From contig DVIS01000022.1 in NCBI GenBank assembly GCA_018711135.1, forward strand, positions 1 to 58,792: 58,792 bases of DNA, in the 5' to 3' direction. The notes beneath the pieces were generated by a model. That model did not search any database. It saw only the letters and a list, made by a program, of their open reading frames with translations, and was not told the DNA's origin. Position 1 is the first letter of the stretch, and each line of letters opens with the position of its first letter. Of this stretch, positions 35,370 to 54,066 are shown piece by piece. This stretch comes from Candidatus Onthousia faecavium. GTDB taxonomy: Bacteria > Bacillota_I > Bacilli_A > RF39 > UBA660. The translations under genes and the position numbers were made by a program.

Positions 35370-37214
35370 TCACATATTAGGACTCATCACGAGGCGGAAT
35401 GAACGGCCACTACCAGCACTACCATTGTAGCTATTAAAGTAGAACACACCAGCATTAATATTTGCATAATCACCACCACGCCCAAACCATGGGAATTCAG
35501 CATCTATCATGTTCTGATAATCACTATACCATCCCGCCGTCTCACTTAAACCATGACTTAAACATTCTCCTCCGTTACATGCTGTACTCACCGTACTACT
35601 TGTATATTTATCATAGTATTTAGATTCAGGCATGCTACTAAATCCGGAACTACCTATTGTATCATTGTAATTACCAATTACATATTCCCAAGCTCCTCCT
35701 GACATATCATATACTCCATATATCGTTCCTGTTGTACTTGCTCCTACGCCTTTTCCTGTTAAACCAGTCTCATCTCTTACATTATTGTCATATGTATATT
35801 GACATCCATAATCTGTATTTCCATTACTCGGGATTCCATAACTACATCCAGTTATATAACTATCTGATTTATTTTGATATATTTCTTTATCTGCACCCGC
35901 AAAATTCTCATTTCCTAACTTGCCATATCTACTTTGTGATAAGTATGCTACTACTCCCCATTCACTGTTCTTCATCGCATGTGAGTTCATGCTTTCACTA
36001 AATCCATATCTATTTCCTGCTGCACTTACCTTTGTTGCTACTGTATGAATATTACTTACATATATATTTCTCCAACTCGTTACGTTTGGTTTAATCATTG
36101 GATCTAAGGTTGTATCGTTGCTTCCTCCAAAACTTGCCAACGGATTAGAACTACTCGTCTCAAATTTTCCAACCCAGATTCCTGGTAACTCTTCTCCATC
36201 ATACGTAAAAGCATCTGGAGTCCGATAGTTCTTTGGTGTCTCTGTGGCAAGATATTTTGCATTACCTGTATCTTTAGTATTAGTATCTATAAACTTAATA
36301 TCTATCTCTCCTGGACGTGAAGCTGAAGGTGTTGTGTCAAGATATATTCCTTTCTTACCATAGTAACTAGCTCCTCCATTTTCACTTGCTATCGTATATG
36401 AGTATCTTGGTATCCATACCCACATAGTTTCTATATCATCCATATTTATTGTTGTTCCAACTGCTGCACTCTGGTATTCTGCTAACTTATCACTTTTTAC
36501 GGTAACAGCATTTGCCCATATTCCCATATCATAGTTATACCAATTATTAGCAGTATCTGTTTTTACCCAGTTATAACCATCATGTTTTACTGCTATCATA
36601 TTATCATCCATTACTGGAGCATTAACATTATCTGTTCCTTGGTCAAAATCAGCATCTGCTACTTGTTGTGATGCAAATACTTTTAATTTTCCTAAAAATA
36701 CTTTTCCTATCGCTTCATTATTCGCATTTATATTAAGCCAAATCCTAAGTTCACAATCTACCTCTTCATCAGCATCTATTATTCCATAACTCATTATATA
36801 TGAATCAGATAATGTTCCTGTAAAAGTCCTATCTCCCATCTTTAATTCATATCTAACATCTCTACTATCTAATAACTCACAGCTTCCCCCACTATCAGTT
36901 TCACAGGCACTTATCGCTTCTTCATCATCAACAACTCCTAAAGTATAATATAAAGGAATAGCGCTATTATTCTTTAATGTAAAAGTATATGGTTCACCTG
37001 CTTTACCTTCATCATCATAAGTGGGTATAGTATTTACTAACTGTATCCCTTCATTCGTTTCATTTAAGACAAGTTCTATATCTCCTACTACTATATTCAT
37101 ATCTTTTTCGCCATACTTAATAACATATAACCACGCATAAGACATTCCTACTAATAATAAAATAATAACTATAACAAGAACTATTATTATTTTTTTCTCC
37201 TTATTCAATTTCAC
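35370..37214 (-). CDS. surface protein: SipW/TasA-like N-terminus plus FGE-sulfatase-type CLec domain; probable DGR target
   Basis: SYAW..VGDIEL, WVWIPRY, GIWVGKFE, ASTTGTIYGVYDMSGGAWEYV and RGG.....AGVF.F....G......SFR. Confidence 0.75.
   Translation of the reverse strand: MKLNKEKKIIIVLVIVIILLLVGMSYAWLYVIKYGEKDMNIVVGDIELVLNETNEGIQLVNTIPTYDDEGKAGEPYTFTLKNNSAIPLYYTLGVVDDEEAISACETDSGGSCELLDSRDVRYELKMGDRTFTGTLSDSYIMSYGIIDADEEVDCELRIWLNINANNEAIGKVFLGKLKVFASQQVADADFDQGTDNVNAPVMDDNMIAVKHDGYNWVKTDTANNWYNYDMGIWANAVTVKSDKLAEYQSAAVGTTINMDDIETMWVWIPRYSYTIASENGGASYYGKKGIYLDTTPSASRPGEIDIKFIDTNTKDTGNAKYLATETPKNYRTPDAFTYDGEELPGIWVGKFETSSSNPLASFGGSNDTTLDPMIKPNVTSWRNIYVSNIHTVATKVSAAGNRYGFSESMNSHAMKNSEWGVVAYLSQSRYGKLGNENFAGADKEIYQNKSDSYITGCSYGIPSNGNTDYGCQYTYDNNVRDETGLTGKGVGASTTGTIYGVYDMSGGAWEYVIGNYNDTIGSSGFSSMPESKYYDKYTSSTVSTACNGGECLSHGLSETAGWYSDYQNMIDAEFPWFGRGGDYANINAGVFYFNSYNGSAGSGRSFRLVMSPNM
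35380..35495 (-). repeat. putative DGR variable region
   Basis: 55 of 120 bases are G+C over 35381-35500; variable codons derivable from AAC/AAT. Confidence 0.6.
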
Positions 37215-37283
37215 TATCTACCACTCCTACCACATTTAGTATATACATTTTACTATCGTTAATACTTTTATTCTTCTATTTAA

Positions 37284-37312
37284 ATTATAGGATAAATACA
37301 TAGGTAATGCAA
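37284..37312 (-). promoter_or_regulatory. sigma-A promoter of the 614-aa gene
   Basis: Minus strand TTGCAT-17-TATAAT. Confidence 0.6.
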
Positions 37313-37388
37313 GTAACTTATTTACGAACAATATAAAAACAGACTGTTAAAAAACAATCTGCACCTATTATAAATCATAAATCTATCG

Positions 37389-38846
37389 TTATAACAATTC
37401 TAATTGATAAGGATCACTAAGACTACCATTTCCATTAGTTATTATTATTTTTTGTTTCAAATAAACAGTAGGAAAAACTGTATCACTATAGTAAGGATAA
37501 GTTGTTGTAAGATATCCTGCATTATTAACATGAAATATTCTATTTACAAACTCAGAAGAAGCCGTAATGGTAACTTTCATATTAGACTCAATCTTATAAA
37601 TCCAATTATTATTATAGCAATCACTTGCCCATGAATATAAATAATTATTATAGCATTCTTCTCTTGAGGTATTAGCTCCACCACTAGTTGCAAAACCATA
37701 ATCAGAAGGATAAATAAGTCCAACTTTTCCTGTCCAGCTTATTTGCCTTTCATTATTATAAGTTAAATTACCACGTTCATAATTATAAAATTCAATTGGT
37801 GTTACATAAATATCAGCCACTCCTCCAAGATACCAAACACTATTATCAATCATTTTTTTAGCATCATCTAGCAACCCTACTGTTGTAAAATCACAAGTAC
37901 TAGTAGCATTATTTATACCATTGTAGCAAATACCACTAGCTCTATTCCAATAAAGACTGCCACCAATCTCTTCATTTTCATGCCCTTCATTTAACAGATG
38001 ATTTAATGAAGAATTAACAAAATCACTATTACCATATTCACCCGTATTATCAAAAGACACCTCATAAATACCCGTATTACTCATTATCTTTAATCGTTCT
38101 TCTTCCTTTCCTGTTCCATCATCAACAGTAAAAACACCTATTATACGCCATAATTCATCATTAAAATATATATAATTATTTGGTTCACTACCAATATAAC
38201 GATAATCAATTATTTGATCTGTTTGCATAGTTTTTTCTTGAGAAAAAAGATATAATTCCTTAGTTCTTAATACATCATCATCTAATGTTGCTTTAATCTT
38301 TAAAGCCTCGTCTGCTAATAAATCATATTTTTGAAACAAATGTCCATCACTAGGTAAACTCAAATTATTATAATCTAGTCCCACTTGCACACCAATTTTA
38401 ATAGTTTGTGTCACCAAAGTAGAATTGAAAACTGTAATTAAATATGTATTAACACTCCCAATCGAATCTTTAGCTGTTAAATTTACTCCTGAAGCATTAG
38501 GAGGAATATTTCTATTATCTCCTTCTAAATACCCCATCTTTACTCCTTCATCTACCTCACCTATATAATAAAAATTAAATCTTGCTATTCTCTCATTAGG
38601 ATTACTTAAAGTAACAGTAAATGTAGCTGTATCCAACGCATTTACTACTATTTCATCTATACTAACTCCATCAATTTTCAAATCATAACTTAATGTCCCT
38701 GTCACAATACTTATCGCATTATTTTTTTCTTTACTTACAGTAAACATCGCATACGAATAATAACTTGCTAATAGTAATAAAGTTATTAGTATTACACTTA
38801 TTATATATATTTTTGATACTTTAGTATTTAATAATAGTCTTTTCAT
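37389..38846 (-). CDS. surface protein: SipW/TasA-like N-terminus plus DUF6273-like CLec domain
   Basis: YSYAMFT..TGTLSY, YRYIG.EPNNYIYF..ELWRIIG, KVGLIYPSDY and VFPTVYLK...GNGS..DPYQL. Confidence 0.72.
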   Translation of the reverse strand: MKRLLLNTKVSKIYIISVILITLLLLASYYSYAMFTVSKEKNNAISIVTGTLSYDLKIDGVSIDEIVVNALDTATFTVTLSNPNERIARFNFYYIGEVDEGVKMGYLEGDNRNIPPNASGVNLTAKDSIGSVNTYLITVFNSTLVTQTIKIGVQVGLDYNNLSLPSDGHLFQKYDLLADEALKIKATLDDDVLRTKELYLFSQEKTMQTDQIIDYRYIGSEPNNYIYFNDELWRIIGVFTVDDGTGKEEERLKIMSNTGIYEVSFDNTGEYGNSDFVNSSLNHLLNEGHENEEIGGSLYWNRASGICYNGINNATSTCDFTTVGLLDDAKKMIDNSVWYLGGVADIYVTPIEFYNYERGNLTYNNERQISWTGKVGLIYPSDYGFATSGGANTSREECYNNYLYSWASDCYNNNWIYKIESNMKVTITASSEFVNRIFHVNNAGYLTTTYPYYSDTVFPTVYLKQKIIITNGNGSLSDPYQLELL

Positions 38847-38869
38847 TTTTTTACTCCTTTCATTTAACC

Positions 38870-38902
38870 AAAAAAAGAACAGAATCCTTCTATCCTGTTC
38901 TT
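38870..38902 (-). terminator. leader (attenuator) terminator directly upstream of the 485-aa gene
   Basis: AAGAACAGGAT-AGAAGG-ATTCTGTTCTT followed by a U-run, ending about 24 nt before the ATG. Confidence 0.75.
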
Positions 38903-38932
38903 ATTCCACGATTAAAGAAAGTACTTAAGCTT

Positions 38933-38983
38933 CTAAAGTCCCCCCCCCCAGGTAACTATTTGTAAACGGATGCTAGCTTGCAT
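38933..38983 (-). CDS. putative leader peptide MQASIRLQIVTWGGGL spanning the G10 tract
   Basis: SD AGAAGGT 7 nt before ATG 38983; stop position depends on G-tract length. Confidence 0.55.
   Translation of the reverse strand: MQASIRLQIVTWGGGL
38940..38949 (-). repeat. poly-G (G10) simple sequence repeat
   Basis: C10 on the plus strand; the only long G/C homopolymer I saw in this AT-rich window. Confidence 0.9.
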
Positions 38984-39065
38984 TTTTCATACCTTCTTTC
39001 TATTTGTTCTATATCAATATTATCATACTAATTACCTAGAATACAAGATTATAATTTTTATTTTT

Positions 39066-40340
39066 CTATGGTCGTAAAGCAGTTATAGGAACAATATATA
39101 TACCTGTTTCTTTATCTTTTACAACAGATGTAAAATTACCTGTTATTATACACATAAATTTAGGTTTTGTTATCATATTATCATAAAATCTTAATAATTC
39201 TTTTTTAGCAGTATCTATAGCATTATATCCCAATTTTATTTCTATCGCTGCATAATCACCATTAGAAAACTCTAAAATCGAATCAACCTCTAAACCTGTT
39301 ACATTGTCTCTAAAGTGATATAAATGTCCACCTAAGTATTCTATATATATCCTTAAATCTCTTTCTACTAATGATTCAAAAAGAAACCCAAATGTTTTTA
39401 AATCTTTAAGTAATTTATCATCATTAAGATTTAAAGAAGCACAAACTAAAGACGGATCTGTTAAATGTCTTTTAGGTGATTTTCCAATTCTTTCTTTAGA
39501 GCGATAATTTTCGCTATAAGCCTCTTGATTCTCTATTATATGTAATCTATCTAATACATCTAAATAGTCTCTTAATGTTATTCTACTTTCAATTAACTCT
39601 TCTCTATTCTCATAATCCTCTATATCTTTTATAAGTGTTTCATTACTAACAACAGTAGATTCATTTCTTGATAATGATTTAAGTAACATTCTCATTTTAT
39701 TTTTATCTCTTTTTTTATCATCATTCATATCTTTATCAAGAATAGATTCTATATAACTTTTAGGTATTAACCCCACTTTATCAGAATCTACTTTTATATT
39801 ACTAGGCCATCCACCTCTAACTATTAAATTAGCAAGTTCTTTTAAAGAAGGTATTTTTACATTAACATTTTTCTGTTTATCTTCCAACATTGCTGTTAAT
39901 GAAGCCTCACCCGTAGAATCTCCAGATTCATAAAGTGACATCGTATACATTTTTATTTTTCCAATTCTTCCAGCTCCCGAATGAAATACCTCTTTCTTCG
40001 CTTCATCATTTAATTCAGTAGAACATGTTAATATATATTTACCTTTGTTAGAATCCTCATCACATTTTCTTCTAACTTTATCCCAAATCTTTGGTACTAA
40101 ATGCCATTCATCAATTAATTCTGGTTGTTCTTCATTTAATACTAGTTCTAAATCAAGCAATGCTTTTTCTTTAGTTTCTTCATCATCAAGATAAACTGCA
40201 CTTTTAGCATGATGTGAAGATGTCCATGTTTTTCCACACCATTTAGGTCCTTCAACAGATAAAGCGCCAAAAACTTTTAAATAGTCATCTAATTTTTTGT
40301 CTATTAATCTTGGCATATATTCGTCTTTATTAAAATTCAT
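39066..40340 (-). CDS. AAA_14/DUF4143 ATPase (subclass B)
   Basis: EGPKWCGKTW, DEWH, HSGAGRI, RGGWP and EVDSI...AAIEIKLG. Confidence 0.88.
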   Translation of the reverse strand: MNFNKDEYMPRLIDKKLDDYLKVFGALSVEGPKWCGKTWTSSHHAKSAVYLDDEETKEKALLDLELVLNEEQPELIDEWHLVPKIWDKVRRKCDEDSNKGKYILTCSTELNDEAKKEVFHSGAGRIGKIKMYTMSLYESGDSTGEASLTAMLEDKQKNVNVKIPSLKELANLIVRGGWPSNIKVDSDKVGLIPKSYIESILDKDMNDDKKRDKNKMRMLLKSLSRNESTVVSNETLIKDIEDYENREELIESRITLRDYLDVLDRLHIIENQEAYSENYRSKERIGKSPKRHLTDPSLVCASLNLNDDKLLKDLKTFGFLFESLVERDLRIYIEYLGGHLYHFRDNVTGLEVDSILEFSNGDYAAIEIKLGYNAIDTAKKELLRFYDNMITKPKFMCIITGNFTSVVKDKETGIYIVPITALRP

Positions 40341-53636: not shown

Positions 53637-54066
53637 TATCATCATCCTTTATTTTTGATAATATTTTCTTAATTGTCTCTACTGGTAATAACGCACATTT
53701 CTTTCTATTAGGTTGTAAATAGATTGTATCATAAGCCATTAAATCTTCTAATAAGTCTTGATCATACTCTCTTTCTTCAATTAAATTTTCATAGTTTGTA
53801 ATTAATGTTTCGACCTCTTTTAAACTCTTACCTATTATTTTTCTTAAGAATATTGAAGTCGCTGAAGTTGAAATAGCACAAGCTTCTCCATCAAAATTAG
53901 CATCTTTAATAATTCCATCTTCTATTTTGAGTTCTATATCAATATTATCAATACAAGACTCATTATTAGTATTCGCTTTTACATAACTATTATCATTAAC
54001 TAAACCCTTATGAAAAGGATTCTGATAGTTATCAACAATTATTTCTCTTTTTAATTCTCTATCCAT
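53614..54066 (-). CDS. sufU: SufU/NifU-like protein
   Basis: N.SC.D, GEACAISTSATS and R.KCALLP. Confidence 0.93.
   Translation of the reverse strand: MDRELKREIIVDNYQNPFHKGLVNDNSYVKANTNNESCIDNIDIELKIEDGIIKDANFDGEACAISTSATSIFLRKIIGKSLKEVETLITNYENLIEEREYDQDLLEDLMAYDTIYLQPNRKKCALLPVETIKKILSKIKDDDNGDKGIK

Follow-up and report, generated by a model that had tools for sequence, protein, structure and literature searches.

A G homopolymer in a leader reading frame as a candidate phase-variable attenuator before a modular surface-protein family in Candidatus Onthousia

Here we describe a leader element that precedes the gene for a 485-residue putative surface protein in Candidatus Onthousia faecavium (assembly GCA_018711135.1, contig DVIS01000022.1); the stretch analysed, hereafter the window, covers 58,792 nt. 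A short open reading frame (ORF) in the leader carries a run of G residues and is followed by an intrinsic terminator that stands directly before the gene. The same cassette of about 150 nt recurs many times in this genome and across the genus. From comparison of these copies we propose that it is a homopolymer-driven, phase-variable form of leader-peptide transcription attenuation, of the type known for Pil1 of Streptococcus gallolyticus, acting across a multigene family. We put the probability of this reading at roughly two in three.

According to this proposal the promoter of each copy would produce a short leader RNA. A ribosome starting at the leader Shine-Dalgarno (SD) sequence and ATG would cross the G run (mostly nine residues, G9; ten, G10, in the window), and the length of the run would set the frame beyond it. 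In either of two short frames, s1 and s2, the ribosome would meet a stop codon soon after the run, only a few codons on and with 16-61 nt still to go to the terminator stem, so that the hairpin would form and transcription would end ahead of the surface gene (OFF or low expression). Loss of one G or gain of two would lead into the long frame, in which translation would continue through a spacer and a pyrimidine-rich (CU) motif, UACUUUCUUUC, to a stop at the top of the terminator 5' arm. A ribosome terminating at this apex would shield the loop together with part of the 3' arm and let the polymerase read through (ON). Slipped-strand replication, by changing the run, would switch each of some 10-20 family genes independently. 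The anatomy, its conservation and the differences in run length among copies and between assemblies are observed; leader translation, the ribosomal block of termination, and the rate and reversibility of switching are what we infer in this scheme.

All parts of the leader in the window lie on the minus strand. A promoter-like site (39017-39046), identified by reading the sequence, comprises TTGTAT at 39046-39041, an 18-nt spacer and an extended -10, TGATAATAT, at 39025-39017; it has no entry in the consensus promoter scan because its -35 hexamer has three of six matches. The leader SD, GAAAGAAGG (38992-39000), precedes an ATG at 38983-38981, which opens the leader ORF MQASIRLQIVTWGGGL (38933-38983) ending in the present allele at TAG 38935-38933. 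A conserved core, GTTTACAAnnnGTTACCT (38950-38967, codons L-Q-x-V-T-W), lies directly 5' of the G10 tract (38940-38949), which is the predicted slippage site that sets the leader frame. The tract is thus downstream of the -10, about 95 nt upstream of the gene ATG, and within a separate ORF of 16 codons. Beyond it a variable spacer (38924-38939) is open in the long frame only, the stops of the short frames being TAG 38935-38933 and TAA 38927-38925. There follows the invariant motif TACTTTCTTT(A/C) (38913-38923), translated (as T-F-F) in the long frame only. This motif is complementary to the leader SD, to the SD of the main gene and to the G run. The long-frame stop, TAG 38890-38892, is reached here with G9 or G12 and sits at the top of the terminator 5' arm, its T being the final base of the arm and its AG falling in the loop. 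The terminator (38870-38902) consists of a stem-loop at 38902-38875 (11 pairs, 6-nt loop) and a T run to 38870; it is the sole terminator-like site in 38500-39400, where shuffled sequences lead one to expect 0.1. The main-gene SD, AAAGGAG (38854-38860), begins 9 nt past the T run, and the controlled 485-codon ORF (37389-38846) starts with ATG 38846, 23 nt past the T run.

The preliminary description of this DNA, made from the window alone, had listed the promoter-like site, SD, ATG, G10, terminator and gene SD, and this anatomy is borne out to the base. Re-derivation of the frames by hand reproduced all the stops it gave: that of the G10 allele, G11 ending in ..GGGTLEA, and G9 or G12 ending in ..GGDFRSLSTFFNRGIRTG. 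The G10 tract is present as claimed, with a correction. Most paralogs in the genome carry G9 followed by T, and the window carries G9 plus a T>G substitution at 38940, hence this tract agrees with the G9 consensus in total length and in frame. The allele is in state s2 and is predicted to be OFF, in agreement with the earlier suggestion. Four points had escaped that description, namely the multi-copy, genus-wide leader, the G9 mode, the invariant UACUUUCUUUC translated in the long frame only, and the 21 of 82 copies with 62-278 nt past the terminator. In another frame a further ATG (MKNAS then stop, 38990-38973, minus strand) stands 7 nt 5' of the leader start; with only 1 nt between it and the SD, it is probably unused. 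An Rfam search of the leader gave no family at the gathering score (best 15-19 bits against thresholds of 35-59), and a single-sequence fold of the leader was not informative (z = -1.7).

The genome of 1,276,879 bases (55 contigs, 28% GC) gave 22 matches to a 220-nt intergenic query, 19 of which are full copies of the cassette. All 19 are oriented toward, and directly precede, genes of one paralogous signal-anchored family. The G run is far beyond chance, since all 14 G/C runs of at least nine in the genome fall within leader copies; the longest A/T runs are of nine. Outside the leaders there is a single G/C run of at least eight (G000:C20:10586-10593), a G8 in an intact 343-codon frame (A-G-G-G) of an ORF that we take to resemble a PDZ/Lon-type protease; it could be a control tract or a further variable site.

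Leader matches were found in 18 of 24 genomes of the same genus, many with 7-22 each, and a weak match in one of 16 genomes outside it. When 300 genomes were drawn evenly from the order, four of the seven other genus members matched; none of the 292 genomes from 126 other genera did, with two candidates scored per genome, which does not amount to proof of absence. A pattern scan of species-representative genomes returned at least 115 stretches. Among the matches listed, many come from metagenome-assembled genomes with the label uncultured Bacilli or Tenericutes, one comes from Candidatus Onthousia excrementipullorum, and those remaining are chance hits in unrelated taxa. In a closed 1.5-Mb relative some 10 matches are scattered around the chromosome. 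Candidatus Onthousia is filed under Bacilli incertae sedis. Public runs holding the window number 19 in nine studies, mostly of chicken gut metagenomes; all are assembled contigs, and no RNA run is listed among the holders.

The frame geometry was compared over 97 unique copies, drawn from the own genome, from relatives (genus search and pattern scan) and from 17 metagenome contigs. The regular expression used to find copies required the core, a run of at least five G, the TACTTTCTTT motif and the stem start, and the pattern scan and the metagenome-contig scan that fed it required at least six G; the own copy C17, a GTTTGCAA variant with G6, escaped it and was read by eye. The spacer between run and motif ranges from 15 to 56 nt and falls into 11 clusters differing by more than 30%. 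In the frame that reads the motif as ACT TTC TTT the spacer is open in 97/97 copies, and each of the other frames contains a stop in 97/97. All 11 spacer clusters are open where shuffles lead one to expect 4.3, with a probability product of 1.7e-5 if the clusters are independent. A hairpin with T run is present in 93 of the 97 copies. Both short-frame stops lie upstream of the stem in every one of these 93, at 16-61 nt (medians 25 and 36), and the long-frame stop falls within the hairpin in 91, in most cases on the final base of its 5' arm, and downstream in two. One frame in three ending inside the terminator, the geometry that the preliminary description wished to see kept in homologous leaders, is therefore kept in 91/93. 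Furthermore, an in-frame start with an SD-like motif belongs to this frame in 85 of the 94 copies with enough flank, compared with 0 and 7 in the other two. The pattern TTG..-N13-16-TGnTAnnnT occurs upstream in 53 of the 91 copies for which 150 nt or more of upstream flank is available.

The in-frame start is kept even though the leader 5' parts are of several sequence forms and vary from 2 to 29 codons. Many relatives have longer leader ORFs whose 5' part contains two or three direct repeats of about 22 nt (GGTAAAATAAATCGTCAATT-like, translated QGKINRQFWGKLIRQ), as at L061:590-655 and in L038, L040, L058, L063, L066, L078, L083, L104, L115, L136, L143, L151 and L163. Four leader copies in the own genome begin with MKMKGINMMVYP instead of the repeat-bearing part.

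Over 76 aligned copies 93.7% of the hairpin cells are paired, against 49-76% in a control in which the 3' partner was slid. In 16 cells both partners have changed, most often from C:G to U:A, and in this alignment compensatory changes thus preserve the terminator hairpin. A consensus fold of the 19 own copies showed no covariation, as these are too alike. The gene start lies no more than 45 nt past the T run in 61 of 82 copies, which leaves no room for a promoter, so these genes must depend on read-through. We also considered a SecM-like arrest motif at the end of many long-frame peptides (..IRAG then stop) and rejected it as a conserved feature, since the final residues (IRAG, IRTG, KRIE, LKE) differ between copies and track the sequence of the stem.

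The run itself differs in length among copies. The 93 copies comprise 59 with G9, 16 with G10, five with G8, three each with G6 and G11, two with G7, one with G13 and four with an interrupted run; in terms of frame, 63 are in s2, 19 in s1 and 11 in the long frame. The s2 stop comes two to three codons past the run (..WGGAV or ..WGGVL). State follows length, with four of five G8 copies in the long frame and 52 of 59 G9 copies in s2; six G10 copies, that of the window included, are in s2, a G having replaced the next base. The 19 own-genome copies are divided into 12 in s2, three in s1 and four in the long frame (C17 by eye).

Four metagenome contigs are 97.8-99.7% identical to own-genome loci, and the run length differs at three of the four, in a comparison that rests on assembled contigs and cannot show heterogeneity within a sample. 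One pair is C36 of the own genome, with G10 in the long frame, and the metagenome contig L176, with G9. These contigs are 99.72% identical over 4332 nt and their flanks are fully identical for 300 nt upstream and 400 nt downstream. C16 has G9 and L175 has G6, and C19 has G7 and L187 has G9, the leaders in both pairs being mosaic otherwise too. In addition, L062 with G9 and L131 with G11 share 400 identical downstream bases. Taken together, these differences point to the run as the part of the cassette most prone to change. Tract length is thus variable among the 93 copies and at the same locus between assemblies, as the preliminary description would have it. Its further claim, that a ribosome blocks the hairpin and that slippage switches the gene, gains support from the comparison of copies, which is consistent with that interpretation.

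A locus-specific 34-mer scan of metagenome contigs gave no matches. Contigs of four public runs broke at the run (38940/38941); they were not counted, because paralogs pile up on the repeat. Among them, one low-depth contig of a paralog has one G fewer and one contig has one G more, and neither is used as evidence. At C16 an insertion of about 250 nt (G000:C16:1981-2229) separates the leader terminator from the gene SD and is missing from L175, which is 99.6% identical; the 3' half of the C16 leader also differs from that of L175, as if swapped between paralogs.

Several observations weigh against the attenuation reading. One of the four compared loci is unchanged, C51 at 54677 and L179 both having G9. 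Each same-locus difference could be an assembly error, since the contigs are of low coverage (about 4x in the record names), and the mosaic leaders of the pairs C16/L175 and C19/L187 mean that recombination and not slippage may have altered the run. MutS and MutL are present, so loss of mismatch repair was rejected as the driver of the variation and slippage would not go unrepaired. The copies are related by descent, hence the counts given above overstate their independence. In Bacillus subtilis the coupling of ribosome and polymerase is weak. The core GTTTACAAnnnGTTACCT and the motif UACUUUCUUUC are near-invariant in nucleotides with little synonymous change, and the attenuation model needs neither. 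G9 is strongly modal (59/93), and a structural constraint could hold it there, as its length is that of the 9-nt CUUUCUUUC with which it can pair. Finally, 21 of 82 copies have 62-278 nt past the terminator, several with a promoter-like site; in these the attenuator would be at most one of two inputs. The preliminary description allowed for no separate promoter past the terminator, which holds in the window (23 nt, with no promoter-like site between terminator and gene by promoter scan and sequence reading) but fails in part for these 21 copies. The modal length is in itself no argument against mutability, because phase-variable polyG tracts of Campylobacter jejuni also have a modal length of nine, G8 tending to gain and G11 to lose repeats, as stated in passages of the published analysis (PMC3401435).

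The nucleotide-level conservation of the CU motif is what one would expect of a device that works through RNA structure whatever the frame, in which the G run pairs with CUUUCUUUC in cis, or with a C/U-rich RNA in trans, and run length tunes SD masking or terminator efficiency. When the segment is folded alone, the run is predicted to pair with the motif in 82/97 copies, and predicted duplex energies of the motif are -12.9 kcal/mol with the leader SD, -10.1 with the main-gene SD and -7.3 with G9. Control by the length of a G repeat in a leader also has a precedent, in passages of a report on Helicobacter pylori (PMC8295292). Such a device on its own leaves unexplained why one frame is open and the other two closed in all 97 copies, why the long-frame stop lies in the hairpin in 91/93, and why start and SD are kept for that frame alone. 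It also has no Rfam match at the gathering score, and covariation cannot decide on the helix because both strands are invariant. We regard it as quite unlikely as a replacement for attenuation, and it may well coexist with it as a second lock. The dominance of G9 across species (59/93), the position of the run in a translated frame behind a strong SD, a helix predicted to start with or right after the run, and the conserved L-Q-x-V-T-W-G-G context, which could matter, would also suit programmed recoding. Here G9 would be the working allele, and a fixed or regulated +1 frameshift, or polymerase slippage to G8, would give graded read-through, the DNA variants being incidental. Against this, variants from G6 to G13 exist, 11 of 93 copies already have the long frame in their DNA, and the same locus differs between assemblies. 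Moreover, the common slip on a G GGG GGG heptamer is -1, whereas entry into the long frame takes +1 or -2. Recoding appears to us an unlikely account.

The copies with a long interval past the terminator bear on a different possibility, that the element is a stand-alone small gene, encoding a small RNA or a peptide of 16-40 residues, and that the surface genes use other promoters. The unit does have its own promoter and terminator, and some of these 21 copies have a good promoter-like site with an operator-like palindrome in the interval. However, 61/82 gene starts, with the window at 23 nt, leave no promoter room, the element always points at and directly precedes one protein family, and the long-frame peptide is unconserved where the RNA is free to vary. 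We therefore consider this possibility very improbable.

About half of the own copies have an additional module between the terminator and the SD, made up of CTGGTTATATAACCAG, which is a perfect palindrome, followed by TATAAT and AATGTCAAAA. Own copies with the extra module are C51:60316, C51:38852, C4:20877, C4:372, C39:18855, C45:8484, C45:10550, C36:30329 and C2:370 (loci L009-L026). At the same position some relatives (L061:770-870, L154, L143 and L038) have a promoter-like TTGATA-17-TGTTAATAT overlapped by a palindrome, TGTCAAAAATATTGATATTTTTGACA. From its sequence the module looks like a second input, controlled by a repressor or an activator.

Taken as a whole, the phase-variable attenuation model could extend to a combinatorial lottery of the surface coat, to which we give about an even chance. 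Ten to twenty dispersed modular genes would each rest OFF at G9, one slip from ON, with UACUUUCUUUC as a second lock that would mask a Shine-Dalgarno sequence unless long-frame ribosomes pass over it. Leader-peptide phase variation would then have its first homopolymer version and its first multigene version.

The product of the controlled gene is probably a secreted or anchored surface protein, given its N-terminal hydrophobic segment, a signal-anchor. N-termini in the family are signal-anchors such as MKRILLNTK..SYAMFTV, MEKKKEK..SYAAFSY and ..SYAWLY. The paralog family is modular, with N- and C-terminal modules shuffled among its members; the N-module of about 174 residues of the 485-residue protein is joined elsewhere to the C-module of about 420 residues of a 614-residue protein, and the reverse also occurs. 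The 485-residue protein has no Pfam or NCBIfam match, even at E values up to 10, and a PDB sequence search gave nothing usable. In particular, it has no match to PF12389 (TasA/camelysin, Peptidase_M73) or to an NCBIfam SipW-type family. Its Atlas neighbours carry DUF6273 on 18-32% of the members of two clusters and Peptidase_M73 (PF12389) on 32% of another. The label TasA/CLec attached to the product in the preliminary description therefore does not stand as a finding and serves as a lead, since the annotation is on a minority of neighbours and there is no direct match.

The next gene (35370-37389, minus strand) encodes the 614-residue paralog, with a sub-threshold FGE-sulfatase-like match, and stands outside the leader control. 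By eye, a terminator-like hairpin (37362-37335) follows the 485-residue gene and a good TTGCAT-17-TATAAT (37312-37284) precedes the 614-residue gene. Upstream, an AAA_14/DUF4143 ATPase gene (39066-40340, minus strand) has its stop 19 nt from the leader -35; read-in from it is possible, since the scan shows no terminator-like site between them. Elsewhere in the window (53900-53950, minus strand) a 26-nt coding stretch (..CIDNIDIE..) is near-identical to the leader promoter region, TTGTATTGATAATATTGATATAGAAC, probably by chance.

Leader-peptide phase variation with attenuation is described, in passages of the report on it, for two pilus loci of one streptococcus (PMC3894217). Full-text literature searches, with most subscription journals outside their scope, brought up the Pil1 report, polyG contingency loci and RepG, and found no homopolymer-in-leader-ORF attenuator, multigene version or case from a gut commensal. 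If correct, our reading would make such control a general and evolvable design copied genus-wide before a surface-protein family. It would imply mycoplasma-like surface variation in uncultured, reduced-genome Bacilli of the chicken and human gut. The leader G count would then serve as a metagenomic marker from which the ON genes of the surface family in a given sample could be predicted. A handful of reporter constructs would suffice to test so sharp a frame geometry.

Among known systems, pyrBI of Escherichia coli suppresses termination by leader ORF translation running into the terminator, and it senses UTP-dependent pausing. The proposed cassette would likewise depend on translation running into a terminator, whereas nothing mutational sets the pyrBI frame. 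The Mycoplasma systems vlp, vsp, vsa and Vpma switch through a polyA tract located in the promoter spacer, or by moving a single promoter through site-specific recombination. They share with the present case a small AT-rich genome, a large surface family with a conserved 5' region, and stochastic switching, which here is predicted; in contrast to them, every gene here keeps its own promoter and leader attenuator. The polyG/C contingency loci of Neisseria and Haemophilus form one comparison group with those of C. jejuni. In that group the tract lies in the regulated coding sequence or in a promoter spacer, whereas here it lies in a separate leader ORF and would act via termination. The setting is similar to that of C. 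jejuni, a gut organism also found in chickens. Passages on the C. jejuni loci (PMC3401435) show a similar picture of many G/C homopolymers in an AT-rich genome, a mode of nine and surface-related genes.

The regulation of tlpB by RepG in H. pylori, in the part of the report that describes it (PMC8295292), is also similar, in that the G run of an mRNA leader is variable and has a partner rich in C/U. There the partner is a trans-acting small RNA, control is graded and post-transcriptional, and the repeat is untranslated (PMC8295292, in the same passages). In the present leader the C/U partner is in cis, and the run, which a terminator follows, belongs to a conserved frame that is predicted to be translated.

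The closest comparison is with Pil1 and Pil3 of S. gallolyticus, where, according to passages of the report (PMC3894217), expression is low when the leader ends 28-39 nt ahead of a premature terminator and high when out-of-frame changes in GCAGA repeats have shifted its stop to within the hairpin or beyond; the effect needs the leader ATG and the terminator and works also in Lactococcus lactis. Several differences are apparent. Here there is a G homopolymer, with no GCAGA units or homology to the pil1 leader, hence a likeness of mechanism and not of descent. The cassette has exactly three frame states with the ON stop fixed at the hairpin apex, together with an invariant CU-rich motif and a conserved core, and it is known from sequence alone. 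It also occurs, at about 150 nt, some 10-20 times per genome across a genus before a modular protein family, in contrast to one or two pilus operons. As far as those passages of PMC3894217 go, both systems nevertheless have the same order of promoter, repeat-holding leader ORF, intrinsic terminator and surface-structure gene, and in both the ON state, here as predicted from the frame, is that of the minority.

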